Shown: in pieces, positions 1 to 20,100 of the stretch | Numbering within the stretch: position 1 is the first letter of the stretch | Layout of the letters: every line of letters begins with the position of its first letter | NCBI GenBank assembly: GCA_046292385.1 | Contig: JBKBRF010000033.1 | Coordinates: 16,113 to 80,112, forward strand | DNA length: 64,000 nucleotides | Source: Armatimonadota bacterium | Lineage (GTDB): Bacteria > Armatimonadota > SYMT01 | Direction of reading: 5' to 3' | Translations under genes and position numbers: made by a program | The notes under the pieces: model-generated | The model's input: the letters and a program-made list of their open reading frames with translations, nothing else | What the model was told of the DNA's origin: nothing | Databases searched by the model: none

Positions 1-303
1 GTAGGAGGCCGCGATGGCGGCCGCCTCCGGCTCAGCCCCCGGCTCGGGGTCGAAGCCGCCGACGTAAGGCTCGTAGTCGCCCGTGATCGAATTGACCGCC
101 TCGAAGACCGCCAACTGCGTGATGGCGGCCCAGCGGGCCTGGAAGAGCGGGTTGCTCGGGGCGCTCGGCGGAGCGTTGACCGACACCACCCGCTGCATGA
201 TCTCGTTCCACCCCGTAACCGTGTCGGCGCGTGCGGGACGGGCGCCCATCAGCACCAGCATCGCGACGGCCAGGTAGGCCAGTGGCTGAAGAAGCCGTTT
301 CAT
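1..303 (-). CDS. Secreted vanadium-dependent haloperoxidase/PAP2-like protein, N-terminal part (runs off the window)
   Basis: Not in the ORF track; manual translation from ATG at 303 (RBS GAGGAGG) gives MKRLLQPLAYLAVAMLVLMGARPARA-DTVTGWNEIMQ...ARWAAITQLAVFEAVNSITGDYEPY...EAAAIAASY. This is a signal peptide plus the typical N-terminus of bacterial VHPO-like proteins. The catalytic part lies outside the window. Confidence 0.7.
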   Translation of the reverse strand, partial: MKRLLQPLAYLAVAMLVLMGARPARADTVTGWNEIMQRVVSVNAPPSAPSNPLFQARWAAITQLAVFEAVNSITGDYEPYVGGFDPEPGAEPEAAAIAASY

Positions 304-377
304 CCGTCTGCCTCCTCATCGGCGCACTCTCCGGGACGGAGAGGCCGGTCGCCCGGGAAAGCGGGAGACCTGCCCTC

Positions 378-448
378 AATGTAACCGTCCACCCTCTCGG
401 GACTCTCCCAGGTGAGGGGTGGAAGGAACACTCTCGGAAGCCTCTCAG
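378..448 (-). promoter_or_regulatory. Putative SARP-activated promoter 1
   Basis: -10-like TACATT (378-383, minus strand) plus repeats TCTCGG 395, TCCCAG 406, TCTCGG 432, TCTCAG 443; same spacing as the promoters at 2272 and 7605. Confidence 0.7.
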
Positions 449-510
449 CGCTGCCTGGCTCCCCGGCGCTCCGTCCGATCCAACAGATCCGTCCGATCTG
501 CCGAAGGCAA

Positions 511-542
511 GGAAAAGCCGAACCCGTCTGGGGGTCCGGCTT
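511..542 (-). terminator. Intrinsic terminator-like hairpin after the Kelch gene
   Basis: Minus strand AAGCCGGACCC..GGGTTCGGCTT then TTCC; the G-U pair works only on the minus strand; homologous to 2357-2390. Confidence 0.6.
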
Positions 543-569
543 CATCCTTCGGAGCGGCTCGAGCCCAAC

Positions 570-2198
570 TCACCTGGTGATGGTGATGTACGTGTAGGCC
601 GTCGCCGGGCTGACACCCGCCTTGGTGATGGTGACGGTAATCCGGGAGGATGAGCGCCGCGGCTGGAACTTGTGCTTTCCCGTGACGGTGAACCCGCCTC
701 CGGCCTTCACCTGGATGGTTCCACTGGAGGAACCGCCGTCTCCCCATTGAATGGTCGCCTTGTAGGCAGTCGCTGCGGACGGGTTCAGGTCCGTAAAGTT
801 CGCGACCGGCCCAGAATACTGGCTGCTGCCGGTGACGATGTTGAGGCCCGTGGCGCTCAACTGCGGCGTCACCCTCGCGTAGCCGCTCGAGACGCCCCAG
901 GAACCGTCGGCCGCAGCCACGGTGATCCGCATTACAAGGGTGCCCGGGGTGGTGTAGGTGTGCGACCCTGCCACGCTGAACCCGCCGCTGCCGTTGGCAG
1001 TGATGAGACCGACGGACGTCTGCCCGTCCCCCCACTGGATGGAGGCGTTGAAGTCCGCGGCTCTGGTCGAGCGTGGGTCCGTGAAGCTAGCGACAACTCC
1101 CGTAAACGCGACCCTTTCGATCGCCTGGATCGACGCGGCCGTGACGTTGGGTCCCGTGGTCTGGTAGACCTCTACCTGGCGCTGTGTCAACAGATACCCG
1201 TCCCAGCTCTGGTCCCATCCGCCCAGAACATAAATGCTCCCGTCCTGGCCCATGGTTACGGCCGGCAGGTCGTGTACGGCGTTCGGCCGCGCCACGGCGG
1301 CCCAGCTATCCCGAGCGGGATCGTAAGCCTCGACCGAGTTGTAATACACCCAGCCGTATTCGTCGAAGTCGCTTCCGATCGCGTAGATCCGGCCATCCCC
1401 GGCGGGACTCAGGTGGACACCCTCGGTGTGCCCGGCCGACAGAGGGGCGAGCGACTCCCAGGCGTTCGCGAGCGCATCGAATCGGTAGACGGCGGTGCTT
1501 ACGGCGCCATCCGGGTTATAGCCGCCGGCGAAATAGATTCGCCCCCCGGCGTCGCTCGTCACACCTGCCCCCTGGAGGAGCCTGATCGGAGGGTCGATTC
1601 GCGGAGACCAGGCGTTCGTGGCGATGTTGTAGGCGATCAGGTACGGAGGCAAGGGAACGCCGTCGTGTCGACCGACTATGGCGTAGATCCGGCCGTCGTT
1701 CCCCACCGCCGCCGAGTTGACGTGTTCCGTAGACGGATCGATGGGCAGCGACGCGATGGGCGACCACTGGTTGGCACGGGTGTCGAAGGCTTCCGCACGG
1801 GTGGCATAGGGCTCCGCCAGGTCATAACCCTGGAAACCGCCGATCGCGTAGATGCGCCCGTCCCGGCCGGTGACACATCCGAAGTAGGCGCGACGATTGG
1901 CCATAGGGGCCACGGAAACCCAGGTGCCGGTCCGGCGATCGTAGGCAAACACCGCCGCCGAATAGTTCCAGCCATCGTGGCCGCCGAGGACGTAGACGCG
2001 GCCGTCTGGACCGGTGGCCGCGCCGGCCCACCCGAGACCGACAGGCATGGGTTCGACATACTTCCACGTGCCCACGTCGGCCCGCGCGGGGCCGGCGGCG
2101 CAGCAGAGCAGCACCGCTGCCGTCGCAAGACATTTGAAGGAACCCCGGAGCATCGACATCCCTTTCGCCAGGCCCATTCGCTTGATGGCCAGTTTCAT
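570..2198 (-). CDS. Secreted Kelch-repeat beta-propeller protein with two C-terminal Ig/PKD-like repeats
   Basis: Start trimmed to MKLAIK at 2198; signal peptide ending PARA-D; repeated DGRIY(A/V)IGG...YD...W Kelch blades; two 'A(S/T)IQWGDG...G' Ig-like units. Confidence 0.85.
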   Translation of the reverse strand: MKLAIKRMGLAKGMSMLRGSFKCLATAAVLLCCAAGPARADVGTWKYVEPMPVGLGWAGAATGPDGRVYVLGGHDGWNYSAAVFAYDRRTGTWVSVAPMANRRAYFGCVTGRDGRIYAIGGFQGYDLAEPYATRAEAFDTRANQWSPIASLPIDPSTEHVNSAAVGNDGRIYAIVGRHDGVPLPPYLIAYNIATNAWSPRIDPPIRLLQGAGVTSDAGGRIYFAGGYNPDGAVSTAVYRFDALANAWESLAPLSAGHTEGVHLSPAGDGRIYAIGSDFDEYGWVYYNSVEAYDPARDSWAAVARPNAVHDLPAVTMGQDGSIYVLGGWDQSWDGYLLTQRQVEVYQTTGPNVTAASIQAIERVAFTGVVASFTDPRSTRAADFNASIQWGDGQTSVGLITANGSGGFSVAGSHTYTTPGTLVMRITVAAADGSWGVSSGYARVTPQLSATGLNIVTGSSQYSGPVANFTDLNPSAATAYKATIQWGDGGSSSGTIQVKAGGGFTVTGKHKFQPRRSSSRITVTITKAGVSPATAYTYITITR

Positions 2199-2271
2199 CC
2201 CACTCTCTCCCGAAATGGTGGCACTCTCCCGATGGAGGTGCGGGCCGCCCTGGAGCGGGAGTCCCAGCCTG

Positions 2272-2342
2272 AATGTAACCGGCCGCTCTCTCGGGACTCT
2301 CCCAGGGGAGGGGTAAAACGAACTTTCTCGAAAGGCTCTCAC
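2272..2342 (-). promoter_or_regulatory. Putative SARP-activated promoter 2
   Basis: TACATT at 2272-2277 (minus strand) plus TCTCGG 2289, TCCCAG 2300, TCTCGA 2326, TCTCAC 2337. Confidence 0.7.
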
Positions 2343-2356
2343 CAGGCAGGAGCCCG

Positions 2357-2390
2357 AAAGTAAAGCCGAACCCCTCCTGGGAGTCCGGCT
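2357..2390 (-). terminator. Intrinsic terminator-like hairpin after the prepilin gene
   Basis: Minus strand AGCCGGACTCC..GGGGTTCGGCT followed by TTACTTTC. Confidence 0.6.
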
Positions 2391-2441
2391 CATCCTGCTT
2401 CTTTCGGAAACGGCCAACTGGCCGCGTCAGGGATTAAGCGG

Positions 2442-3356
2442 TCACGTGCTGATCGCGCTGGGGTGGACCGTCATGTTCGGCTCCTGTTCCGGCCGGAAGA
2501 GCAGCATGCGTCCGCAGGGGTCGACCCACGCCTGCGCGATGGTGCCGTCCGCGTGGTAGCGGAACGGCTCCGTCGCCGGGTCGGTGTTCATCGTGGTCCC
2601 CCCCACCTTCTTCCACCTGGCGTGGCCGTCCGCGTAGAGCCAGTGCTGGCCACCGTGGTGCGCCTCGGGGCGACCGTTCATGAACATCTGGACATAGAAG
2701 GTGCCCCGCGCACCGGTGCTGGTCCTCCCGGTGGCGGGATCACAGTCTCCCAGCCGGAAGGGCCAGGCACTCTCCGGCGCGAAGAGCGGGTGGACCCCGG
2801 GGTTGATCTGTCCGGCTCCCCGCCATCGGGAGCGGCCGGTCTCCCAGAGCAGCGGCACGAGCGCCGGGTAGCGGACCTCGGATTGGTTCAGCGCGCCCAG
2901 CAGCCCGTTGAACGAATAGCTGATCTCCGTCGGCTGGACGCCGGGGGTGAGGTTCGCCATCGCTGGATCTCCGGGGATCAGGTCGGCGGTCTCACCCGAG
3001 GGGCAGGCCCAGATCTTGTAGCTCCGGGTGTACGCGTAGACGGCATTGGGGCCCTGAGAGCTGTACCACGCCAGGTGTTCGGGTGAGCTCCGGTCGACCA
3101 CCAGGTTGGGCGGCGAGTAGTAAGCCAGCCGGCCGGCCCGGTCGGGAGCCTGGGCGCCGAGGGGAAAGAGCTCGTCGTGATCCTGTACGTAGAGCATGAA
3201 GGCATTGCCGAGCTGCCTCAGGTTTGAAAGGCAGGTCGCCGCTCGACCCTTCTCCCGCGCTGCCGCGAGTACCGGAAAGAGCAGCGCCGCCAGGATGGCG
3301 ATGATCGCGATCGCCACCATCAGCTCGATCAGCGTAAAGGCACGTTTGCGGGACAT
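2442..3356 (-). CDS. Prepilin-type N-terminal cleavage/methylation protein with H-X9-DG motif (DUF1559-like)
   Basis: AFTLIELMVAIAIIAILAALLFPV, CLSNLRQLG, HHGGQHWLYADGHA. Confidence 0.9.
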   Translation of the reverse strand: MSRKRAFTLIELMVAIAIIAILAALLFPVLAAAREKGRAATCLSNLRQLGNAFMLYVQDHDELFPLGAQAPDRAGRLAYYSPPNLVVDRSSPEHLAWYSSQGPNAVYAYTRSYKIWACPSGETADLIPGDPAMANLTPGVQPTEISYSFNGLLGALNQSEVRYPALVPLLWETGRSRWRGAGQINPGVHPLFAPESAWPFRLGDCDPATGRTSTGARGTFYVQMFMNGRPEAHHGGQHWLYADGHARWKKVGGTTMNTDPATEPFRYHADGTIAQAWVDPCGRMLLFRPEQEPNMTVHPSAIST

Positions 3357-3387
3357 CGGAATCTCCTGTGTGCGCGCGGAGATAAAG

Positions 3388-3996
3388 TCACTCTACAGTG
3401 CCGGCGCCGTGGGCGGCCGGGTCAAAACCGGCGGGCCAGCGGGTGCCGCGGTTAAAGCCGGCGCGTTCCAGGATGGCGCCAGTCAGGTTCGCACCGTCAA
3501 GGTTCGCGTCGTCCAACTGGGCGTCGGACAGGTTGGCGTTTGCCAGGTTGGCCCCCGAGAGGTCGGCGCCGCTGAGGTTCACCCCTTCGAGGCGCGCCCC
3601 GGTGAGATTGGCGCCGGGAAGGCGTGCCCGGGCGAGCTGGGAGCCGGTGAGAGAGGCGCCGGAGAGATCGGCGCGACTCAGGTCCGCTTCCGTCAGGTTC
3701 GCCGTGCGGAGGTTGGCGTTTCTCAGGTTCGCCCCGGCGAAGCTCCGGCCGTGGAGCGCTGCCCGCTCCAGGTTGGCCGGCCCGAGCCGACCGGGCAGGA
3801 GGAACCCGGCGACGGCCACCACTCCCACCGCGGCGGCCAGCAGCCAGCGGCTCTGGAGCGTCGCGATCCCATTCCGGATTCGTTCGCTCACCGGCGCGGG
3901 CGCCGCCGCCACGAGCTCGGCTCCGCAGTCATAGCAGGAGCTCTTCCCGGCCGGGTTGGGGGCGCCGCAGCGGCTGCAAGGGTTCATCCGGGACAT
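3388..3996 (-). CDS. Zinc-ribbon, TM and pentapeptide-repeat protein
   Basis: CSRC...CYDC, hydrophobic helix, then A(N/D)LxG repeats ending WPAGFDP. Confidence 0.9.
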   Translation of the reverse strand: MSRMNPCSRCGAPNPAGKSSCYDCGAELVAAAPAPVSERIRNGIATLQSRWLLAAAVGVVAVAGFLLPGRLGPANLERAALHGRSFAGANLRNANLRTANLTEADLSRADLSGASLTGSQLARARLPGANLTGARLEGVNLSGADLSGANLANANLSDAQLDDANLDGANLTGAILERAGFNRGTRWPAGFDPAAHGAGTVE

Positions 3997-4005
3997 TAGG
4001 CGCTC

Positions 4006-7000
4006 CTACCTCGCTCCGCCTGCCGCCGGCCGGACATCCGGCACGGTGACCGCGGCCTGGAACGGCCACATGCGTTGAACGCGCCGGCGATCGGTCTCGT
4101 TGAACGTGGCGGCGCGCCAGAGCCGCACCCTCCCGTCACCGGCTCCGGCGGCCAGCATGCGGCCGTCCGGGGAGAACACCGCCGAGTTGATGAAGTGAGA
4201 GCCGACGTCGAGCGAGGCGACCTCCCGGCGGGCAGTGACGTTGACGTTATAGATCTTGACCACCCGGTCGGTGCTGCCCACGGCCAGGCTGTTGCCGTCC
4301 GGCGAGAAGGCCACCGAGTAAATGTAGCCGTGGACCCCCTTCAGCGTTGCCGCGGGCAGCTCCGCTTTGCCGGCCCCGGGAACGGGCCGCGTCACGTCCC
4401 ACAGGCTGACATTCCCGTCGGACTGGCCGGCGGCGATCAGCCTGCCGTTCGGTGAGAAAGCGATCGAAAGCGAGTAGCCGCCGCGAGGCGAGAGTATCCG
4501 GGGTGTCTGGTCCTCTCCCCTCGCGATCTCCCAGAGGCGGATGGTCCGATCCTGGCTGGAGCTGGCCACCATCCGTCCGTCCGGCGAGAATGCGACACAC
4601 GCGACCGGTGCGGTATGCGCCTGCAGAGTGGCGATCTGGTGGACCGGGCGCTCGGCCACGTTCCAGAGCCGGACGTTGCAGTCTCCTTCCGCCGAGGCGA
4701 GGGTGCGGCCGTCGGGCGAGAAGGCGAGGGAGTAGATCCCGTGCGCGTGCCGCTTCAAGGGCCGGATCAACTCTTCTCGGGTCTCGACGTCCCAGAGGCG
4801 AATGGTGCTGTCCGCGCCCGCCGTGGCGAGGGTGCGGCCGTCGGGGGAGAACGCCACGGAGAAGACGGCGTCCTTGTGCCCCTTGAAGGTAGCGGGCGTC
4901 TGGCTCCGGCCCCCGGACACCTCCCAGAGGTAGACGCTGCGGTCGAACCCCGCGGTCGCGAGCCTCTTGCTGTCGGGGGAGAACGCCACCGCGGCGACGG
5001 TGTCGTCGTGGCGGGGGAGATGGTCCTGATCGGCGCTGACGGAGGAGGGCCACAGCTTCACGGTCCCGTCCGCGCCGGCGGAGGCGAGGGTTCTGCCATC
5101 CGGCGAGACAGCGACGCAGTGGACCTCCGCGCGGTGTCCAGCGAGTGTGCGGAGCAGCTCGCCACGCCCGTTGTCACGCGGGGTACTCACGTCCCAGAGC
5201 ATGATCGCGGTGTCCCAGCCGCCCGAGACCAGCATCTTGCCATCGGGGGAAAACGCCAGCGAATGCACGTTCGTGGAGTGGCCCCGAAAGCTTCGCAGCA
5301 GCTTGCGGGTGCGCACGTCCCAGAGTCGGCCGAACCCGTCCACTCCACCCGCCGCCAGGAGTGAGCCGTCGGGCGAGAGCGCAAGCGAGGTGAACGCCAC
5401 CTGCCGGCGGCGGCTGTTGGCGGCGGCCCCGTCGAACGGCCGCTTTCGGAAGTTCGCGGTCGCGAAGATGCGTCCGTTGCTTAGCGTCCGGGCCCCGGGC
5501 TTCGCCTCCGCCAGGCTCCAGGTCCGGATCGTGTCGTCGCCGGCGGACGCGAGAGTCTTTCCGTCCGGAGTAAAGGCGACCACGAAGACCCGGGCCGTAT
5601 GTCCCGTCAGGGTCAGCGCGGTCTGGTCCTGACCCTTCACCATGTCCCACACCCGGATCGTCCGGTCGTCGCTGGCAGTCGCCACCTTCCCGCCGTCCGG
5701 GGAGAAGGCAACCGACCAGACGATGCCGTTATGCGCGGGAATGCTCATCACCTGGCGGCGGGAGGGGACATCCCAGATCCTGAGTGTGCCGTCCAGGCTT
5801 CCGGAGGCGAGTCGCCGTCCATCGGGTGAGAACGCGACGCAGTCCACCTCTTCCGTATGGCCGGTCAGGGTGGCGACTTCATGGCCCGTAGCCGCGTCCC
5901 ACAGCCGCACCGTGCGGTCTCCGCCCGCGGAGGCGACACGGCGTCCGTCCGGGGAGAAGGCGACGGAGGTAACCACCCCTACGTGCCCGGTAAAGGTCGC
6001 GCTGGCCTCGCCCTGGCAGAGGCGCCAGAGATAGCGCCACTCGAACCCCCGCACGTCCGCGTCGCCGGGTCGGGGGCGGTGTCCTTCTAACAACTCCGCC
6101 GCCCGGGCAAGATCCCGCCGCTCCCAGGCGCGCTGGGCGAGGTTCATGTCCGCCGCGTAGAGGTAGTGCTCCGCCATCCGCCGATTCTGGGCTTCCCGCT
6201 GTGCCGTGCTGCGCTCCGAGAACGCCAGACCGCCGATGACCGCCATAATCGCGGATGAGACGGCGGCGGTGCGCAGGAGCCCCCGCCGGAACGCGGCTTT
6301 CTGGCGGCGCACCTCCGCATCCGGCATGTGCAGCCTGACCCAGTCCAGATCGAAGACCCGCTCGTAGATCCGGTTGCGGACGGCCAGGAATGCCCTGCAC
6401 TTTCTTCTCGCGGGCAGTCCCACCTGATCGGCGACGCGGACGATCCCCGAGAGGCGCAGGAGGCTGACCAGAGGGTTGTTCTCGTCGCCGCTCACCCGCT
6501 TGCCGCGCCGCACCAGCCCGTAGAGATCCAGGAGGGCGGCGAGATCGACCTCGCTTCGCAGGAGACGGTCCCGCACGAAGAGCAGGTTGTCGTCCCGCTC
6601 CCGGGCGGCCAACGAGAGGAACAGCGCTTCGCAGACCCGATCCACGCCCGCGGCATCGCGGACGGTCCCATCCTGGACGACGGCCAGGCAGAGGCGCTGC
6701 GTCAGGTACGGGTGCCCGCCGGTCCAGAACAGAGTGCGCCGCAGCAGAAGGCCGGCGTGGCTCTTCCCCAGTCCCGGCACGTCGCGCTTCTCCAGGCCGA
6801 ACGCCAGCGGCATGGCCTCCGCTTCGGTGAAGTCCGTGAGCTCGATCCGGCGGCCGATGTTGAACGGGGTGGTGCGGGTGTCCTGAATCAGGTCCGAAGG
6901 AGAAGCGACGCCGAGCAGGCAGAAGGTGAGCCGCTCGTAGCGCGGGTCTTCCGACCGCCGGTTGAAGCAGGCGCGGAGAGCGGCGAAAAACTCGTCCGTG

Positions 7001-7476
7001 GAGAACGGGAGGGAGCGCACGGTATCGATCTCGTCGATGAAGATCACCAGCCGCTGGCCGGGTCCGCAGGAGAGCGTCACCACGGTGGGAAGCACCACCT
7101 CCCGGAGCGCCCGCACCCAGCGCTGCAGCGGGCTCAGGTGCGCGTGCTCCCTCCAGAACCGGTGCAACTCCCGCTCCAGGTCCAGCTGCTCGCCGATGAT
7201 GCCCAGCAGCCCCTCGTACCACTGCTCGGGGGAGAGGTTCTGGCCTAGCGTGGTGAGGTCCAGGACTGCGACGCTCGTGCCCACCTCACGCAGGCGCACC
7301 GCCGTGCGGACCATCAGGGAGCTCTTACCCATCTGCCGGGCGGTGAGGAGATAGCAATACTCCCCTTGCAGCAGCGCGTGGTACAGCTCGTCGTCCGCCC
7401 GTCGTTCCACGTACGAGGGCGCCTCCGGACGGAGGGTTCCCCCCGTGACGTAAAAGCTGGAAGTGAGCGTCTTCAC
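4006..7476 (-). CDS. AAA_35-type P-loop ATPase with TM helix and about 14 WD40 repeats
   Basis: YVERRAD, Walker A ARQMGKS, Walker B IFIDEID, TGGHPYLTQ, hydrophobic segment AAVSSAIMAVIGGLAF, many GH...VAFSPDG...LWD repeats. Confidence 0.92.
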   Translation of the reverse strand: MKTLTSSFYVTGGTLRPEAPSYVERRADDELYHALLQGEYCYLLTARQMGKSSLMVRTAVRLREVGTSVAVLDLTTLGQNLSPEQWYEGLLGIIGEQLDLERELHRFWREHAHLSPLQRWVRALREVVLPTVVTLSCGPGQRLVIFIDEIDTVRSLPFSTDEFFAALRACFNRRSEDPRYERLTFCLLGVASPSDLIQDTRTTPFNIGRRIELTDFTEAEAMPLAFGLEKRDVPGLGKSHAGLLLRRTLFWTGGHPYLTQRLCLAVVQDGTVRDAAGVDRVCEALFLSLAARERDDNLLFVRDRLLRSEVDLAALLDLYGLVRRGKRVSGDENNPLVSLLRLSGIVRVADQVGLPARRKCRAFLAVRNRIYERVFDLDWVRLHMPDAEVRRQKAAFRRGLLRTAAVSSAIMAVIGGLAFSERSTAQREAQNRRMAEHYLYAADMNLAQRAWERRDLARAAELLEGHRPRPGDADVRGFEWRYLWRLCQGEASATFTGHVGVVTSVAFSPDGRRVASAGGDRTVRLWDAATGHEVATLTGHTEEVDCVAFSPDGRRLASGSLDGTLRIWDVPSRRQVMSIPAHNGIVWSVAFSPDGGKVATASDDRTIRVWDMVKGQDQTALTLTGHTARVFVVAFTPDGKTLASAGDDTIRTWSLAEAKPGARTLSNGRIFATANFRKRPFDGAAANSRRRQVAFTSLALSPDGSLLAAGGVDGFGRLWDVRTRKLLRSFRGHSTNVHSLAFSPDGKMLVSGGWDTAIMLWDVSTPRDNGRGELLRTLAGHRAEVHCVAVSPDGRTLASAGADGTVKLWPSSVSADQDHLPRHDDTVAAVAFSPDSKRLATAGFDRSVYLWEVSGGRSQTPATFKGHKDAVFSVAFSPDGRTLATAGADSTIRLWDVETREELIRPLKRHAHGIYSLAFSPDGRTLASAEGDCNVRLWNVAERPVHQIATLQAHTAPVACVAFSPDGRMVASSSQDRTIRLWEIARGEDQTPRILSPRGGYSLSIAFSPNGRLIAAGQSDGNVSLWDVTRPVPGAGKAELPAATLKGVHGYIYSVAFSPDGNSLAVGSTDRVVKIYNVNVTARREVASLDVGSHFINSAVFSPDGRMLAAGAGDGRVRLWRAATFNETDRRRVQRMWPFQAAVTVPDVRPAAGGAR

Positions 7477-7604
7477 GCAGGTTCCTGGCTCTGTACCGGC
7501 TGCACCCGTCCGCTCCGCCGCGTCTGGGTGGCCACTCGCTCACCCACCCGCCATTCCGAGTCGCTGCTCTTCGTTCGAGGACCCGGCCCCGGCACGCTGC
7601 TGAT

Positions 7605-7675
7605 ACTGTAGCTGGGGTCCGTCTCGGAGCTCTCTCAAAACCAGCGTCTCCGCAAGTCTCTCAGAACTCTCTCAC
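7605..7675 (-). promoter_or_regulatory. Putative SARP-activated promoter 3, upstream of the AAA_35-WD40 operon
   Basis: TACAGT at 7605-7610 (minus strand) plus TCTCGG 7622, TCTCAA 7633, TCTCAG 7659, TCTCAC 7670. Confidence 0.7.
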
Positions 7676-7693
7676 CACCGCGGGGGCGGGCTT

Positions 7694-9565
7694 TTACATG
7701 GCCAGCTTGCGGTGGAGGAAGCGAGCATAGACTTCACACCGAAGGCGCGCCGCACCCGATGCCTCTCCGGTGAGGACCCCGGCGCTGCGCAGGCGGAAGA
7801 AGCTCTCCGCGGAGGGGCACGGGTGTCCGTCCAGCACGGCGCGGAGCGCCTGGGTGAGGTCGGGATCCCGCGCCAGAGCGGCGAGCAAGCGGCGAAGGTG
7901 ATCGCTGAAGATTCCTTCCTCTCGCTCCGCGTCGGCTTCGAAGGCATCGATCGGCCGCTGGCGCGGGTCCGACTCGGTCCCATGCCGCGTCGCCATCTCG
8001 TGGAGGCCGCGCCGCACGAGGTAGGGATGACCGCCCACCAGCCGGTAGAAGCGCCCCAGCTCCTTCGCGTCGCGGAGTGGCCCGCCGTACCGGCTGTTGA
8101 GCTCCGCCACCTGGTCCCAGGTGAAGTCCTCCAGCACCAGGCGCGTCCCCACATTGAAGGGCGAATGGTTCAGGTCGCTGATGAAGAGGTGCGCCTCCGT
8201 GGCGTAGGCCATCGCGAGGGTCAGCCGGCCCCACGGCCCGGCGGGGTCCAGGGCTCGCTCGTTGTGCCACGAGCGGAAGATGCCAAATACCTCGCTGGCA
8301 AACCCGCACGAGAACAGCCGGTCCACTTCATCCAGCCCCCACACCAGGCGGGTCTCCAGCCGGCCCAGGACCTCCCGGCGCAGGTAGCGCCGGAGGCTCA
8401 GTCCTGCGCCGCCGCCTTCCCACGTCTCTGTGGGAACCCTATCTAGCTCCAACTGCTCGGAGATCCAGCTGGCGAGGACCCGGAACAGCGAGTCGGCCGA
8501 GGCAAGGTGCGCCTCGCTGAGGACCTGGAAATCGGTGAAGACCACCCGCGCTCCCGCCTCGCGCGCGTGCTGGAGCTCCCGGGCCAGGAGCGAGGTTTTG
8601 CCCACCTGGCGAGCGCCCTTTACCAGGACCAGGCTGTCCCCCCGCTTCACGGCCTGCCGGAACTCGCGATCCGCCGGGCGCGGCAGGTAGAACCGGGAGC
8701 CGAGCGGTACCGCCCCGCCGACCGGCTCCAGAAGCTCCCGGGGGACGGGGGGTAGAGAGGGCTCCGGCGCCGTGTCGCTCGCGCGCTCCGCTGGTACCGC
8801 CGTATGGGCGGGGCTGGCGGAGCCTCCCGCCAGCTCCGCGGCCAGTGCCCGGGTAGCGGCAGCTGGGGCAGCGTTCAACTCGCCCTTGAGGTGGGCCGCC
8901 AGCTCTTCGTAGTGGCGAAGCGCGGCGGCCGGCTGTCCCATCGCCGCGTGCAGCCGCATCACGGCGCGATGCGCGGTCTCGCGGAGTGGATCCGAATGCG
9001 CCGCGCGCAGGGCATAGAACAGCGCGCGCTCGTACTCCGCCATCTTCTCCAGCTCGGCGGAGAGCTGCTCCAGTGCCTGGAGCAGCAGCGAGCGAAGGCG
9101 GTGCTGCTCCGGAGGGATCCAGTCGTCATAGAACCCCGGCAGCAGCTCTCCCCGATGAAGATCCACCGCTTGCACCAGCAGGTCGATCCGCTCTTCGGAC
9201 CTCGAAACGGAGCGGGCGGCCCGCAGCCCGGCCTCGAACTCCCAAACGTCCGTCGTCACCGCGGCCGGATCCAGATGGACGGAAAAGCGGTTGGTCACCA
9301 GCACGGCGCCGTCCGGCACTCCCGGGGGCTCCAGATCGCGCCGGAGAGAGGAGAGCGCGACACTCAGGTTGTGCCGGCTGGACTCGACGCTGCCCTCCGG
9401 CCAGAGCAACCCGACCAGCACCTCGCGCGGATGACCGCGCGGAAGGTGGTAGGCCAGGTACGCCAACAGCGCCGCGGTCTTCTGAGTGCGGAATTGCGTG
9501 ATCTCCCGCTGGCCCTGGTTCACCCGCAGCCCGCCGAGGAGTTGGATCCTGCATCGAGTCTCCAT
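7694..9565 (-). CDS. SARP-family transcriptional activator (wHTH + BTAD) fused to an AAA_35-type ATPase
   Basis: Start METRC with [34 protein letters not shown] (wHTH); [15 protein letters not shown] (BTAD); [26 protein letters not shown]. Confidence 0.92.
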
Positions 9566-9815
9566 GCAGCCTCCTTGCCGCCCTGAACGACGCCGCGCCA
9601 CCCCGGTTTCCGGGAGCACCGGACAAACTGTTTCCCACATCGACTAAGACGCTTGTTCTCGCCAAAGGCAGACTCCTTGCTATATGCCATGACGTGGGGA
9701 ATACGGAGGGGTTCCGTCATCGGTTTTACGACGATGGGGTGCGACCGCACGGTGGAAGCTGCTTACAACGAGAGATTGCAAGCTGCACGCGAGGGCGAGT
9801 CTCCGTTCAAGAGCA

Positions 9816-10058
9816 CTACTGCTCACTGGAGTAGCAGCAGGCACCTCCACCGGTGGTGGTTGGGATCCTGCTCCACGCCAGGGATGACCGCACCAAACCA
9901 GGCGACAGAGGGTCCAGGTGCAACGCCTCGCCCGCAACCTGCGCCAGCCGCCAGACGAACCGCTCCAGGATCCGCGTGCGGTCCATGAGGGTCCGTCGGC
10001 TCCAGCCCTGGGCCTTGCCGGTGATCCAACGGCCAACGGCGCGATTGAGATCGACTCC
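9816..10058 (-). pseudogene. Probable tyrosine-integrase N-terminal (SAM-like) remnant
   Basis: Manual translation with no proper start: DLNRAVGRWITGKAQGWSRRTLMDRTRILERFVWRL...LSPGLVRSSLAW, then stop; lies ~200 bp from the tRNA 3' end. Confidence 0.4.
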
Positions 10059-10251
10059 GGACGCCGGGGCGCAGCGATGCGGGAGCTCCGGGCGGCGCCC
10101 GGGGTGGAGACGGAAACAGCCGCCCGCCCCAGTCGAGGGGTAGAGGGTCTGAGCTGCGTTTTCAGCTCCTATCGAAGGATCGAAGGAGCTGGCGGATCAG
10201 GGAGTAGATGCGCTGTTTGTGCCTGATGTGGGAATCGGCACCGCTGAAAAG

Positions 10252-10324
10252 TGGGTCGGCTGGGACTCGAACCCAGGACCACCTCCTTAAAAGGGAGATG
10301 CTCTACCGACTGAGCTACCGACCC
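10252..10324 (-). tRNA. tRNA-Lys (anticodon UUU), CCA not encoded
   Basis: GGGTCGG-TA-GCTCAGTCGGTAGAGC-A-TCTCC-CTTTTAA-GGAGG-TGGTC-CTGGG-TTCGAGT-CCCAG-CCGACCC-A folds as a cloverleaf. Confidence 0.97.
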
Positions 10325-14155: not shown

Positions 14156-17100
14156 ATGCCTACTGAACCCTCGTCTTTTCTCCACCTGGGCACCGCCGCC
14201 ACCCTGATCGGCGCCGCCCTCTCCGTGCTTCAGATGGCGCCTGCCGAAGAGGCAGAGGCCCCGTTCCGAGCGGAGCTCCTGAGCCGGGAGCAGCTCGCCG
14301 AGCGGGCGCGGCAGCTGGCGCGGGAGCACCGGGTGCTCCCCGGAAGGCAGCGCGGGCGCCCGCTGCTGCGCCGGGTGGAGGAGAGTGCGCGGTCGCTGGT
14401 CCGCAGCTACCAGGCGATCGCGGCGGCGGCGCGCCGGGGCGAGCCGGTGACGCCGGCCTCGGAGTGGCTGCTCGACAACTTCCACATCGTGGAGGAGCAG
14501 ATCACCGGCATCCGCAAGCACCTGCCGCGCACCTACTACGCGGAGCTGCCGAAGCTGCGGGACGGGGAGCTCGCCGGCTACCCGCGGGTCTACGCGCTGG
14601 CGCTGCTGATCATCTCCCACTCCGACGGCGCGCTGGACGAGGAGACGCTGGCGGAGGTGGTGCAGGCGTACCAGAGCATCTCGCCGCTCAGCATCGGCGA
14701 GCTCTGGGCGGTGGCGATCATGCTGCGCGTGGGGCTGGTGGAGAACCTCCGTCGCCTCACCGAGCCGCTGGAGGCCCAGCGCCTGGCGCGCGCGGAGGCC
14801 GACGCCTGGGCGGAGCAGGTGATCGCCGCCGCGGCGAACGGCGCCTCCGAAGTAGCAGTGGTGCTGGGACAGCTCGCCGGGAGCCGGCTGCGGCTGCGGG
14901 ACCCGTTCGTCGTGCGACTGGTCCAGCGGCTCCGCGGTCGCGGCGCCGCGGTGCAGCCAGTGCTCGACTGGCTGACGCGCCACGTCTCCGGCCAGGGCGG
15001 TCCCACCATCGAGGAGCGGGTCCGCGCGCAGAACCAGCTGCAGGCGGCGGACCAGGTCTCGATCAGCAACACGATCACCAGCTTCCGGCTGCTCGACCGC
15101 ATCGACTGGGCCTCCTTCTTCGAGAAAGTGAGCCTGGTCGAGGCGGTGCTCCGGCGAGATCCCGCCGGGATCTACACGCAGTGCGACTTCGCCACGCGGG
15201 ACGCCTGCCGGCATGAGGTGGAGCGGATCGCCCAGCGCAGCAACTCCACCGAGCTGGAAGTTGCCACGGAGGCGATCGACCTCGCCCGGGAGGGAGAGGC
15301 GCGCCGTCCCGGAGAGGTGCGACGGGCGCACGTCGGTTATTACCTGATCGACCGCGGCTGCCGGGAGCTGGAGCGGCGGTCGGAGTACCGCCCCACTTCC
15401 GGCGAGCGGGTCCATACCTGGGTGCTGGACCACCCGACCGCCATCTTCCTCGGCGCAATCACGCTTTTCACCGTGCTCTTCACGGCGATCGCGGTCTGGT
15501 ACGCCGCCGTGGCCGGGCCGGATGCCTCGCCCTGGCTGGTGGCGCTGGCCGGCCTGGCGGCGCTCATCCCCGCCAGCGATCTGGCGGTCTCCGTGGTCAA
15601 CCGCACCACCACGCTGCTGCTCCGGCCGCGCGTGTTGCCGAAGCTCGACTTCAGCACCGGCACGCCGACGGAGTTCCGCACGCTGGTGGTGATCCCCACG
15701 CTGCTCACCAGCGAAGAGGGGGTCGACGAGCTGCTCGACAACCTGGAAGTTCACTACCTGGCCAACACCGACCGGAACCTCCACTTCGCGCTGCTGACTG
15801 ACTTCGCCGACGCGCCGCAGGAGGAGATGCCGTCCGACCTGGCGCTCCTCCACCGCGCCATCAGCGGCATCCTGCGGCTGAACGACCGGTATGAGGGGGT
15901 CAACTGCTATCAGCGGTTCTACCTCTTCCACCGCCCCCGCAAGTGGAACCCGTGCCAGGAAGTCTGGATGGGCTGGGAGCGGAAGCGCGGCAAGCTGATG
16001 GAGCTGAACCGGCTGCTGCGCGGCGCGGAGGACACCAGCTACCAGATCGTGATCGGCGACCGCGAGGCGATCCAGGGGGTGAAGTACATCCTCTGCCTCG
16101 ACTCGGACACGCAGCTTCCGCCGGAGTCGGCCCACCGCCTGATCGGGACGATGGCGCACCCGCTCAACCGCCCGGTCATCGATCCGGAGACGCGGCGCGT
16201 GGTGGAAGGCTACGGGCTGCTCCAGCCGCGCGTGAGCATCAACCTGCCGAGCGCCGCGCAGACGCTTTTCACCCGCATCTTCTCCGGGAACGCCGGGGTC
16301 GACCCCTACACCACGGCAGTCTCCGACGTCTACCAGGATCTCTTCCGCGAGGGGATCTTCTGCGGAAAGGGGATCTACGATCTCGACGCCTTCGAGCAGG
16401 TGCTAGAGGGGCGGGTCGGCGAGAACGAGCTGCTGAGCCACGACCTCTTCGAGGGCAGCTTCGCCCGCTGCGCGCTCGCTACCGACATCGAGCTGTTCGA
16501 CGACTACCCGGCCCGTTACAACAGCCACGCCGCCCGGCAGCACCGGTGGATCCGGGGCGACTGGCAGCTCCTGAAGTGGCTGGCGCCGCGGGTCCGGCAG
16601 CCCGCCACCGGGGGGCGCCCGGGCCCGAACCCGCTCTCCGCCATTGCACGGTGGAAGATCTTCGACAACCTCCGCCGGAGCATGGTGGCGCCGGCGCTGG
16701 CGCTGATGCTGGCGCTCGGGTGGCTCGTGCTGCCGGGAGAGCCGGTGGTCTGGACTCTCGGCGCGCTCCTGGTGGTGCTCTTCCCGATCTACGCGCACCT
16801 CGCCGGCGCGCTCATCGTCGATCCGCGCGCCGTCCCCTGGACCAGCTACTTCTGGAACGTCTGGTACGACGCGCTGACCAACCTGGAGCAGGGGGCGCTC
16901 ACGCTGAGCTTCCTGATGCACCAGGCGGTGAACGCGGTCGACGCGGCGGTGCGCACCCTCTGGCGCATGTTCGTCACCCGACGGAACCTGCTGGAGTGGA
17001 CCACCGCCGCCGCCGCGGAACGGATGCTCGGCTCGGACCTCGTCAGCTTTACCCGGCGGATGGCGCCGTCGGTTGCCGTCTCCGCCCTGCTGCTGGTGCT

Positions 17101-20100
17101 GGTGGCGGCGCTCCGGCCGGGGGCGCTCGGCGCGGCCTTGCCGGTGCTGCTCACCTGGTTCGCCGCGCCCTGGGTCGCCTGGGCGGTCAGCCGGCCGCTC
17201 CGGAAGGAAGTCGTCACCCTGGCCCCGGATGAGATCGACTACCTGCGCCTGACCGCCCGAAAGACCTGGCGCTTCTTCGAGGAGACGGTCAGCGAAGCCG
17301 ACAACTGGCTGCCGCCGGACAACTACCAGGAAGACCGGTTGCCGGCGATCGCGCACCGCACCTCCCCCACCAACATCGGCCTCCTGTTGCTCTCCACCGT
17401 CTCCGCGCGCGACCTCGGTTATGTCGGCCTGCTGGAGATGACCGACCGGCTGGAGCGCACCATGGCGACCCTGGACGGGATGGAGAAGTTCTGCGGGCAC
17501 TTCTTCAACTGGTACGACACGGAGACCGCGAAGCCGATCCTGCCGTTCTACATCTCCACCGTCGACAGCGGCAACCTGGCCGGGCACCTGATCGCGCTCA
17601 AGCAGGCGTGCTGGGAGCTGCAATCGGAGCCGGTCTTCGGGGAGCAGACGCTGGCGGGCCTGCGGGACGTGCTGGCCGGGCTCCGCGAGGCGCTGGGCGA
17701 CAAGGAGGGCGTGCTGGCGGAGCCGCTGGCGACGATGTCCCAGCTCCTGAACGATCCGTCTTACAGCGGCCCGGCTTGGCACTTCCACCTGCAGAAGATC
17801 CGGTCGGTCGCCACCGTGATCGAGCAGCAGGCGGCGTCACTCTCCGAGATCGAGCTCGGCCGGGAGCCGCGGGCCTGGATCGGGATGCTTTCCCGGTCCG
17901 CGGCGGAGCTGCAGCGCGACCTGGAGACATTGATCCCCTGGGCCGGCCTCCTCACCATGCAGCCGGTGCCGTTCGGCGACGGCAAGCCGCTGTTCGGCGA
18001 CCTCGAGGACCGGCCGCACGTCTTCGCGGAGCTGGTGACGCCCCCGGGAAAGCGCCCGCGCGGGCTCTTCCAGCTCGCGGAGGCGATGGACCGCGCCCTC
18101 GCGCACCTGGAGCGGCTCTACGCCCGCCTGGAGCTGGACGGGGTCTCCCCGGAGCAGCAGGAAGCGGCGCGGACCTGGCTGGGCGAGCTCCGGAACGCCT
18201 TCGAGCAGTGCCGGGTGCAGCGGGTGCAGCTCCTGCGCCGCCTCAGCGCCCTGGCGGAGCAGGCGAACCGGATGGTCGAGGAGATGAGCTTCGCGTTCCT
18301 CTACGACGAGGCGCGCGATCTCTTCGCCGTCGGCTACAACGTCACCGAGGCGCGGCTGGACGGGTTCCACTACGACCTCCTCGCCTCCGAGTGCCGGCTG
18401 GCGAGCTTCGTAGCGATCGCCAAGCGGGAAGTGCCGCAGAAGCACTGGTTCCGGATGGGCCGGGCTCTCACTTCCGCCGGCGGCGAGCGGGCGCTCGTCT
18501 CCTGGAGCGGCACGATGTTCGAGTACCTCATGCCGCTGCTCGTGATGCGCTCCTACGGCGGCACGCTGCTGGCGGAGACGATGCCGGCGGTGGTGCGGCA
18601 GCAGCAGCGCTACGCCGCGCGCGAAGGGGTGCCGTGGGGGATCTCCGAGAGCGGCTTCAGCGCTCGCGACCCCGGCATGAGCTACCAGTACCACGCCTTC
18701 GGGGTGCCGGGCCTGGGGCTCAAAGCGGACCTCTCCGAAGACCTGGTGATCGCGCCGTACGCCACCCTGCTCGCGCTGCCGCTGGCGCCGCGGGAGGCGG
18801 TGCGGAACCTGGAGGCGCTGGAGCGCGAGGGAGGCGAGGGCCCGCTCGGCTTCTACGAGGCGATCGACTACACCCCGACCCGCCTGCCGCGCGGCGAGCG
18901 GAGCGAAGTGGTGCGCAGCTACATGGCGCACCACCAGGGCATGGCGCTGGTGAGCCTGGCGAACTATCTGCTCGGCGACCCGATGCAGCAGCGCTTCCAC
19001 GCCGACCCGCTGGTGAAGTCGGCGGAGCTGCTGCTCCAGGAGCGCAACCCGCGCGAGGCGACGCCGGCCCACCCGCAGACGCAGGAAGTGCTGGCGGCGC
19101 AGACCGTCCGGCGCGAGCTGGCCGCCGCCTCCGTGCGCCACTACACCACGGCGCAGACGAGCACCCCGCGCGTGCAGCTCCTCTCCAACGGCAGTTACGC
19201 GGGAATGGTCACCAACTCCGGCGGCAGCTACAGCACCTGGAAGGGGATCGCCGTCACCCGCTGGCGGGAGGACCCGACCCGCGACCACTGGGGGACCTTC
19301 CTCTACCTGCGCGATCTGCAGAGCGGCAGCGTCTGGAGCGCCACGCAGCAGCCGCTGCCGCAGGTCGCCGCGGAGTACGAGGTCTACTTCACGGAGGACA
19401 AGGCGGAGTTCCAGCGGCGCGAGCACGGCATCATGAGCCGGCTGGAGGTTTGCGTCTCCCCCGAAGACGACGTCGAGATCCGGCGGCTCACGCTGACCAA
19501 CCTCTCCGACCAGCCGCGGGAGATCGAGGTGACGAGCTACGCGGAGGTGGTGCTCGCCAAGCCGCAGGCCGACATGGCCCACACCACCTTCAGCAACCTC
19601 TTCCTCGAGACGGAGTTCCGTCCGGAGCGCACCGCCCTGCTGGCCACGCGCCGGCCACGCGCCGCGGGACAGGAGCGGCTCTGGGCGGTCCACGTGCTGG
19701 CGCACGAGGGGGTGCCGGCGGAGATCTGGGCCGCCACCGAGTACGAGACCGACCGCGCCCGCTTCACCGGCCGCGGACGCACCACCGCCAACCCGCTCGC
19801 CCTGGAGACGAATGAGCCGCTCTCCGGCGCCACCGGACCGGTTCTCGACCCGATCTTCTCCCTGCGGCAAAAGGTGCGGATGGCGCCGCGGCAGACGGTC
19901 CAGCTCGCCTACATCACCGGCGCCGCGGCCAGCCGGGAAGAAGCGCTCGCCCTGGCGGAGCGGTACCACGACCTCCGCGCCGCGGGCCGCGCCTTCGAGC
20001 TGGCGTGGACCAACAGCCAGGTAGAGCTGCGCCACCTGGGGCTCACCCCGGAGCAGGCGAACCTGTGCCAGCGCCTCGCCTCCCGGGTGCTCTACGTCGA

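Follow-up and report, generated by a model that had tools for sequence, protein, structure and literature searches.

Which protein reads a set of exactly spaced repeats shared by three promoters of an Armatimonadota bacterium, and which genes would it control? The window containing them is a 64,000-nt stretch of contig JBKBRF010000033.1 (assembly GCA_046292385.1, positions 16,113 to 80,112). Three sites, here called P1, P2 and P3, lie within 7.3 kb on one strand, each upstream of a gene, and each carries four short boxes next to a -10-like hexamer. They adjoin the gene for a predicted 623-aa regulator (7694..9565, minus strand) with a winged helix-turn-helix (wHTH), a BTAD domain and an AAA_35 nucleoside triphosphatase (NTPase) domain, a SARP-type architecture (SARP, Streptomyces antibiotic regulatory protein). 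Here we propose, with a probability of about 0.6, that the four boxes form the bipartite operator of this adjacent SARP-type activator. The regulon would consist of three transcription units: a PAP2/haloperoxidase-like gene, a Kelch-repeat gene, and an operon for an AAA_35-WD40 protein (the partner of the SARP in what follows), a pentapeptide-repeat protein and a DUF1559 protein. We infer the identity of the binder, the sign of the regulation, the start sites and the role of the distal boxes from sequence.

All three sites are read on the minus strand. At P1 the hexamer TACATT occupies 378..383 (AATGTA on the plus strand), with the proximal CGAGA box 11 nt upstream of it. Two 11-nt units, CTGGGAGAGTC + CCGAGAGGGTG, make up the proximal pair at 390..411; they begin 28 and 17 nt ahead of the -10. 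The distal pair, CTGAGAGGCTT + CCGAGAGTGTT, lies at 427..448, and its units begin 65 and 54 nt ahead of the -10. P2 has the same hexamer at 2272..2277 (again AATGTA on the plus strand), with a proximal pair of 11-nt units, CTGGGAGAGTC + CCGAGAGAGCG, at 2284..2305 and a distal pair, GTGAGAGCCTT + TCGAGAAAGTT, also in 11-nt units, at 2321..2342. The P3 hexamer is TACAGT at 7605..7610 (ACTGTA on the plus strand); its proximal pair, TTGAGAGAGCT + CCGAGACGGAC, again of 11-nt units, spans 7617..7638, and its distal pair, GTGAGAGAGTT + CTGAGAGACTT, spans 7654..7675 and ends 18 nt past the SARP stop codon. On the plus strand, box 1, 11 nt beyond the hexamer, reads TCTCG at 395, 2289 and 7622, and box 2 reads TCCCA at 406 and 2300 and TCTCA at 7633. 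Distal box 3 reads TCTCG at 432 and 2326 and TCTCA at 7659, and distal box 4 reads TCTCA at 443, 2337 and 7670. All the coordinates quoted in the first-pass annotation are correct.

Aligned without gaps on the gene strand, the three sites read TGAGAG-N5-YGAGA-N21-TGRGAGAG-N3-CGAGA-N11-TACA(T/G)T, and in each promoter the distances from the starts of the four 11-nt units to the first base of the hexamer (TACATT, TACATT or TACAGT) are 65, 54, 28 and 17 nt. The twelve units yield the consensus CTGAGAGAGTT (of the form nYGRGAGnGTn), in which positions 2-7 and 9-11 are informative and the others are free. In P1 and P2 box 2 is TCCCA, and their proximal pair also fits a 9-nt register, CTCTC...CTCTC on the plus strand; no register other than that of 11 nt is valid for all four units in all three sites. 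A consensus scan of window 1-10200 found no sigma-70-like -35/-10 pairs, and the hexamer at a 17-nt spacer upstream of the P1 -10, AGAGTC, matches TTGACA at 0/6 positions.

To place this arrangement in the genome, we scanned both strands of the assembly (7,043,135 bp in 91 contigs). The regular expression YGAGA-N6-YGAGA-N21-YGRGA-N6-YGAGA matched three times in these 7.04 Mb, at P1, P2 and P3. The single pair YGAGA-N6-YGAGA matched 36 times genome-wide, with 4 matches at this locus. Over the 65 columns in which P1 and P2 agree, P3 scored 40/65, the best of 14,070,800 positions besides P1 and P2 themselves (mean 17.5, standard deviation 3.5; runners-up 38, 37 and 36). The spaced matrix that the first-pass annotation had called for was a sharper test when built leave-one-out, with the 11-nt unit summed at offsets 0/11/37/48 over 14,075,714 positions. 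Trained on the eight units of P1 and P2, it scored P3 at 48.2 bits (rank 3), after the training sites at 55.8 and 50.2 and with the next position at 15.5; trained on the four units of P3 alone, it scored P1 at 43.0 and P2 at 42.0, with the next genome position at 20.2. The P3 distal pair ranked 1 genome-wide under the matrix trained on P1 and P2, and the P3 proximal pair alone ranked only 28. With a matrix of all 12 units, the best foreign pairs scored 20.1 (C5:170591) and 20.0 (C29:1493) versus 21.4 for the weakest true pair (labels are C## for contigs, G### for genomes, with G000 the window genome, and L### for homologous loci). None of the best non-locus pairs in the matrix scan had a TAnnnT downstream at the right distance, and scanning the genome for extra single pairs gave no convincing fourth promoter. 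The four-box arrangement, not the single pairs, carries the uniqueness. A chance origin of the four-box pattern is excluded, and the observation is confirmed.

The three sites differ in how much they tell us about selection. Between the P1 and P2 operators 65/86 columns are identical, and a gapped alignment with 75% mean column identity over 411 columns covers the 5' untranslated region (5'UTR) with its ribosome-binding site and reaches the start, ATG AAA; the genes downstream, PAP2/VCPO-like and Kelch, are unrelated to each other. Judged by this alignment, P1 and P2 are one duplicated promoter-leader cassette (window 303-450 versus 2198-2345), and the locus therefore offers two independent instances. 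The three promoters described in the first-pass annotation are thus real as sites, but not as three independent witnesses. Some 45 nt beyond the -10, the 5'UTR common to P1 and P2 also carries an extra GGAGAGTGC element. P3 was said to resemble the other sites only in the motifs, and this is borne out: between P1 and P3, 27/32 box and -10 columns are identical, versus 18/44 columns between the boxes, 8/40 in the upstream flank and 24/80 in the 5'UTR, where base composition alone gives an expectation of about 29%. Boxes and spacing kept amid flanks at chance level are the signature that selection on the boxes would leave.

The candidate regulator next to the sites has the domains expected of a SARP, a wHTH and a BTAD. 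In a Pfam search Trans_reg_C matched residues 27-81 of the 623-aa protein (52-106 of the 648-aa open reading frame, or ORF) at E 1.6e-4, BTAD followed directly (E 5.3e-20, 72.7 bits versus a cut-off of 22.1), and AAA_35 (PF14516; E 2.3e-68, 230.9 bits) made up the NTPase domain that ends the protein. The same search found no NB-ARC, TPR or repeat sensor in it. A profile of ten homologues, over positions 5-277, matched AfsR (8jke, 8k60, 8hvr) at E ~1e-19 and EmbR (2fez) at E 4e-16, both collinear over wHTH and BTAD; the single SARP sequence matched AfsR at E 2.8e-4. Both Walker motifs of the AAA_35 domain are intact. In the Walker A motif GxxxxGKT/S, G317, G322 and K323 are invariant in the 10 homologues and the next residue is T or S, and in Walker B, D412 and D415 of the hhhhDExD stretch (DEVD) are likewise invariant. 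Searches of NCBIfam and PADLOC gave no informative name for the SARP (PDC-S01 matched at E 2e-4 over 50 residues) or for its partner, which matched repeat models only. The gene identities proposed at first pass (haloperoxidase-like, Kelch, AAA_35-WD40 operon, SARP at 7694-9565) hold, and the SARP itself also has an AAA_35 domain. We use "SARP" for this predicted domain architecture, without counting the protein among the regulators of Streptomyces antibiotic clusters. Of the 13 Trans_reg_C matches in the genome, 11 are of response-regulator size, and Trans_reg_C is combined with a strong BTAD in two proteins only, this SARP and a 1019-aa protein on C43. The C43 SARP-like gene (wHTH + BTAD; G000:C43:18831-19853, plus strand) has an 11-nt repeat of its own, TCACA-N6-TCACA, about 75 nt upstream.

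At the DNA level, the sites are arranged as SARP targets are. According to PMC10936776, the direct repeats of SARP targets are spaced by 11 or 22 bp, and 8 bp separate the 3' repeat from the -10. The afs box lies at -40 to -19, overlaps a poor -35 and takes two protomers side by side, with contacts confined to the leading 8 bp of each 11-bp repeat. At P1 to P3, 11-bp repeats stand by the -10 and over the -35 position, and when TACAnT is set at -12 to -7 the proximal units fall at -40 to -19. The likeness to the published SARP arrangement drawn in the first-pass annotation is sound. The AfsR/afs box system of the Streptomyces coelicolor afsS promoter resembles ours in further respects. Both proteins have an N-terminal OmpR-type wHTH and BTAD followed by an (oligomerising) P-loop NTPase. 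Both promoters, going by that paper, have two 11-bp direct repeats in place of the -35 beside a weak -10, and only the first ~8 bp of each unit are conserved (here) or contacted (AfsR). Unlike in AfsR, the NTPase here is AAA_35 rather than NB-ARC/NOD and there is no TPR sensor; the combination of NB-ARC/NOD and TPR in one polypeptide that marks an AfsR-type large SARP is absent. Here there is also a second pair 37 bp upstream, the word is YGAGAG, the host is non-actinobacterial, and the targets are secreted or surface proteins rather than a known antibiotic pathway.

A bipartite operator has been described for PimR, a large SARP of the SARP-LAL type with an NTP-binding C-terminal half. According to PMC5930380, PimR at the pimM promoter cooperatively binds a main operator of three heptameric repeats with 4-bp spacers and a secondary operator of two repeats; the main operator does not overlap the -35, and the secondary units are 10 bp. 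In contrast, the sites described here have 2+2 units, all of 11 bp, with the proximal pair over the -35 position. Response regulators of the PhoB/OmpR type are winged-helix proteins that line up head-to-tail along 11-bp direct repeats; a promoter has several of these pho or omp boxes, and the proximal one replaces the -35. The SARP differs from these in having no receiver domain and in carrying a BTAD, and its control would come from the NTPase and the partner, not from phosphorylation.

The SARP query matched in 26/41 genomes searched (G000 included) and in 6/6 of the same family. The gene order SARP-AAA_35 then AAA_35-WD40 is also found at L022, L023, L024, L025, L026, L027 and L029, giving an AAA_35 NTPase pair at 7 related loci plus the window. 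We examined 27 distinct full-length homologous loci (10, plus 17 new ones among a set of 80), and YGRGA-N6-YGRGA repeats stand directly beside genes in five of them, L024, L025, L026, L027 and L039. With L112, the homologous-locus scan suggested at first pass found GAGAG-type repeats at six further SARP loci, but within the full-length SARP-AAA_35 set it succeeded at 5/27 only. In L025, L026 and L039 the repeats directly follow the SARP stop, as at P3. L039 has one pair there, and so has L025, which carries another four boxes, spaced 0/11/36/47, beyond the partner gene. In L026 the gap between the SARP and partner genes (L026:10100-10260, plus strand) holds a 64-nt promoter unit as a tandem duplicate. 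In each copy one box, TCTCTCA, is inverted and two TGAGA boxes are direct, with TATCCT 11 nt downstream. L027 has four boxes at 0/11/32/43, twice, before two paralogous secreted TLDc proteins. L112, whose 1153-aa SARP has another architecture, carries TGAGAG-N5-TGAGAG twice, 50 nt ahead of the start of that gene and beyond its stop, and L028 has an ambiguous pair just past the SARP stop. L024 has three boxes, 56 nt past the stop of the partner. About 90 nt after this three-box promoter (L024:5540-6200, minus strand) comes a hairpin that, with its T-run, resembles a terminator; the start of the next ORF lies ~430 nt further. A small RNA, or else a leader subject to attenuation, may be encoded here.

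The density of YGRGA-N6-YGRGA was 0.70/10 kb in 21 full-length loci versus 0.31/10 kb in 59 AAA_35-only loci. Genome-wide, TGRGAG-N5-YGRGA has a background of 17-51 matches per 5-9 Mb genome, versus 18-33 for the reversed control. Among 150 of the 185 such matches, same-strand clusters were found at G003:C265, G006:C298 (two), G005:C1 and G005:C2, and all but the last adjoin SARP pairs. In other SARP-AAA_35 paralogues the 11-nt repeats that precede the gene itself use different words: TTCATGC x4 (L032), TTCACGC x3 (L036), TTCACG x2 (L031), CGTCAAC x3 (L022), ATTTTGCGT x2 (L046) and TTTATG x2 (L054). In a maximum-likelihood tree of 28 DNA-binding-domain segments, a 100/98 clade holds 6/7 loci with a TTCAYG-like or other upstream word and 0 GAGAG loci, and the three word classes need 3 changes versus a shuffled mean of 6.5 (0/200 shuffles as low). 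The classes were defined after inspection, 13 tree rows are unclassed and relatives share labels, so that it is suggestive only that word classes may track the phylogeny of the DNA-binding domain. At L037:8800-8960 (plus strand), the gap between the SARP and its partner holds short tandem arrays, CCTGAACA x6 and CATCAAC x4.

Every gene in window 1-9565 is on the minus strand. The P1 target starts with an ATG at 303 and continues past the window start (1..303 in the window; G000:C33:15123-16415, 430 aa). It appears to be a secreted PAP2/vanadium-chloroperoxidase-like protein, with PAP2 at 27.6 bits versus a cut-off of 27.2 and the VCPO_2nd model at 24.3 bits, under its cut-off of 27. The P2 target (570..2198) is a secreted Kelch-repeat protein of 542 aa (Kelch_1, E 1.3e-34). 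From P3, the first gene of the operon (4006..7476) encodes the 1156-aa partner, with AAA_35 at aa 13-262 (84.7 bits) and then ~14 WD40 repeats; a domain search found no DNA-binding domain in it. By domain search, the second gene (3388..3996) encodes a zinc-ribbon and pentapeptide-repeat protein, and the third (2442..3356) a prepilin-type N-methyl/DUF1559 protein, or pseudopilin. The 217-nt gap between the SARP gene and the AAA_35-WD40 gene holds P3.

Two terminator-like hairpins, each with a 12-bp stem on the minus strand, separate these units. One, followed by a U-run, lies at 509..549, 3' of the Kelch gene and upstream of P1 (minimum free energy of the fragment -37.4 kcal/mol, z -2.76). The other has a U-rich tail and lies at 2363..2391, 3' of the DUF1559 gene and upstream of P2; the z-score of its whole fragment is merely -1.48. 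A terminator consensus scan of window 1-10200 missed both hairpins, which folding shows. On the far side of the regulator, about 690 nt upstream of the SARP start, a tRNA-Lys(ttt) gene (window 10251-10324, minus strand) may mark an island boundary, and a very long open frame of 2976 aa runs on the plus strand at window 14156-23086.

How would such an operator work? Two SARP protomers would bind the proximal pair side by side, in place of the missing -35. Like AfsR on the afs box, they would recruit or adapt a sigma-70-type RNA polymerase to the weak -10, TACAnT. The distal pair, 37 bp upstream, would hold a second dimer, joined to the first via oligomerisation of the AAA_35 NTPase, which would make occupancy cooperative and nucleotide-dependent. 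The WD40 paralogue may supply the signal input. With the P3 operator driving the gene of this paralogue, activation would raise the level of the sensor. No such boxes stand upstream of the SARP gene itself, and therefore any feedback would run via the partner only. The positive feedback proposed in the first-pass annotation would concern the partner gene alone.

Paired STAND NTPases are known in which one member senses and the other helps, such as NAIP-NLRC4 and paired plant NLRs. Our pair is alike in that two paralogous NTPase genes are adjacent, with a WD40 sensor on one product and a wHTH-BTAD output on the other. It differs in that the output is transcription and not cell death, AAA_35 is only putatively STAND, and co-assembly is predicted only. 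In the complex prediction, the SARP NTPase (residues 270-623) with the first 400 residues of the partner scored 0.50 versus 0.00 for the best control. In calibration the mark was reached by 116/157 solved complexes and 2/215 mismatched pairs, with just 18/157 solved complexes and both passing mismatches at scores of 0.60 or less; custom alignments were used in the prediction, which makes these calibration counts only a rough guide. Agreement among the three runs covers at least 85% of contacts, and the predicted local distance difference test score (pLDDT) of the partner is at least 80. This model weakly suggests that the SARP and its partner could co-assemble, and the score may reflect a generic oligomer interface of paralogous NTPase domains.

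Several observations weigh against assigning the boxes to the SARP. With P1 and P2 being copies, n=2. The Trans_reg_C match of the SARP, at 22.1 bits, lies below the Pfam cut-off of 26.2 (the L025 orthologue, at 28.7 bits, lies above it), and 12 other Trans_reg_C proteins of the genome, 11 of response-regulator size and the C43 SARP-like protein, could bind direct repeats. The 37 bp between the pairs is ~3.5 helical turns, placing them on opposite faces, and this distance is 32, 36 or 37 among relatives. GAGAG-type repeats are found in just 5/27 SARP-AAA_35 loci, plus L112, with L028 ambiguous; among the closest DNA-binding domains, no such repeats were found at L028 (second SARP gene), L003 (3.2-kb contig), L054 and L031. 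The GAGAG triple at G005:C2, all on the same strand, has no SARP gene within 10 kb. At this site (G005:C2:1016320-1016346, or L111:9821-9850, plus strand) TGAGAG/TGGGAG/CGAGAG stand at 11-nt spacing, with no partner homologue within 10 kb either; the triple looks like coding sequence, and it is a counter-example to a strict association. An unbiased count of 6-mer recurrence over the 27 SARP loci gave no overall excess at 11 nt (103, versus 98 at 10 and 106 at 14), although the count is noisy and dominated by coding DNA. The word classes of the tree, too, were set after inspection.

These points bear differently on the alternatives. The boxes could be the operator of another direct-repeat regulator, either the C43 SARP-like protein or any of the 11 response regulators of OmpR/PhoB type, with the adjacency of the SARP coincidental. 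Members of the OmpR/PhoB family also bind 11-bp direct repeats near the -35, and the number of Trans_reg_C genes and the weak wHTH match of the SARP both leave room for such a regulator. We nevertheless consider it improbable: none of those genes is near the sites on this contig, the motif is confined to this locus while the same repeat type stands at six homologous SARP loci elsewhere, and the C43 SARP has the different repeat noted above. It is also possible that the SARP binds and the logic differs, either as repression by occlusion of the -35, or with the proximal pair alone at work, the distal pair then acting as a decoy or binding the partner-loaded form. The ~3.5-turn distance and its variation among relatives would fit this, as would the one inverted box in L026 and the single pairs in L039 and at the first L025 site. 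This reading is, in our view, quite improbable. There is no -35 hexamer for a repressor to occlude, the distal pair is the best-conserved part of P3 (rank 1 genome-wide), and the characterised SARPs named in the part of a review available (PMC10972967) are all activators.

Finally, there may be no dedicated regulator, in which case promoter-cassette copying, recent for P1/P2 and old for P3, would explain the sites, and the boxes would be intrinsic to the promoter (UP-like or curved) or act at the RNA level. The clear duplication of the P1/P2 cassette up to the start codon is in keeping with this, the L027 and L026 promoters are duplicated too, and the 18/44 identity of P1 and P3 between the boxes is slightly above the ~29% expected. 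Copying does not readily explain why the exact spacing of the four boxes and the -10 is preserved in P3 amid flanks of chance identity, nor why the repeat words differ among SARP lineages. The boxes also lie upstream of the -10-like hexamer and downstream of the hairpins and so are probably not transcribed from these promoters. An Rfam search of window 1-10200 at E up to 1 found nothing at the promoters and gave two sub-threshold matches to eukaryotic long non-coding RNAs or microRNAs in coding regions. A leader or protein-binding RNA was rejected as the main reading because of the position of the boxes upstream of the hexamer, and we hold this whole alternative very improbable. Binding and activation by the adjacent SARP is the explanation we prefer, and the interpretation given in the first-pass annotation is partly supported.

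This is a known kind of system, not a new kind, and its interest lies in where it is found and how it is built. A 2024 review (PMC10972967) describes SARPs as "exclusively found in actinobacteria". Neither the actinobacterial host nor, among the targets, the secondary-metabolism cluster usual for the family is seen here. We take the lineage to be non-actinobacterial, probably Armatimonadota. WhiB was found in 0/4 of the family genomes (completeness 69-98%; the control, Corynebacterium glutamicum, was positive), and DUF1559 has 43-110 matches in each of the 4 and none in 14 control genomes. No biosynthetic enzymes were found among the P1-P3 target genes, to which that search was confined, and a literature search limited to the pairing of Armatimonad with SARP returned no relevant paper. 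To our knowledge, no transcription factor-operator pair has been described in Armatimonadota. What is new, then, is a putative SARP-type operator outside Actinobacteria and a predicted sensor-less SARP paired with an AAA_35-WD40 paralogue.

The literature treats SARPs as activators of actinobacterial antibiotic clusters; the same module and 11-bp logic appear here in uncultured Armatimonadota. With so distinctive an operator, the regulon becomes readable directly from sequence, and the homologous loci offer a natural series of regulators and repeat words for the evolution of winged-helix specificity. For synthetic biology, the locus would provide an activator and operator that form an orthogonal set. 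More speculatively, and on balance doubtfully, a split two-gene STAND-like switch may be widespread in Armatimonadota, in which SARP-AAA_35 and AAA_35-WD40 form a mixed oligomer that sets two SARP dimers on a 2+2 operator, each paralogous pair with its own 11-bp word (GAGAG, TTCAYG, CGTCAA and others). If true, these bacteria would have many insulated, sequence-readable mini-regulons of secreted and surface proteins.

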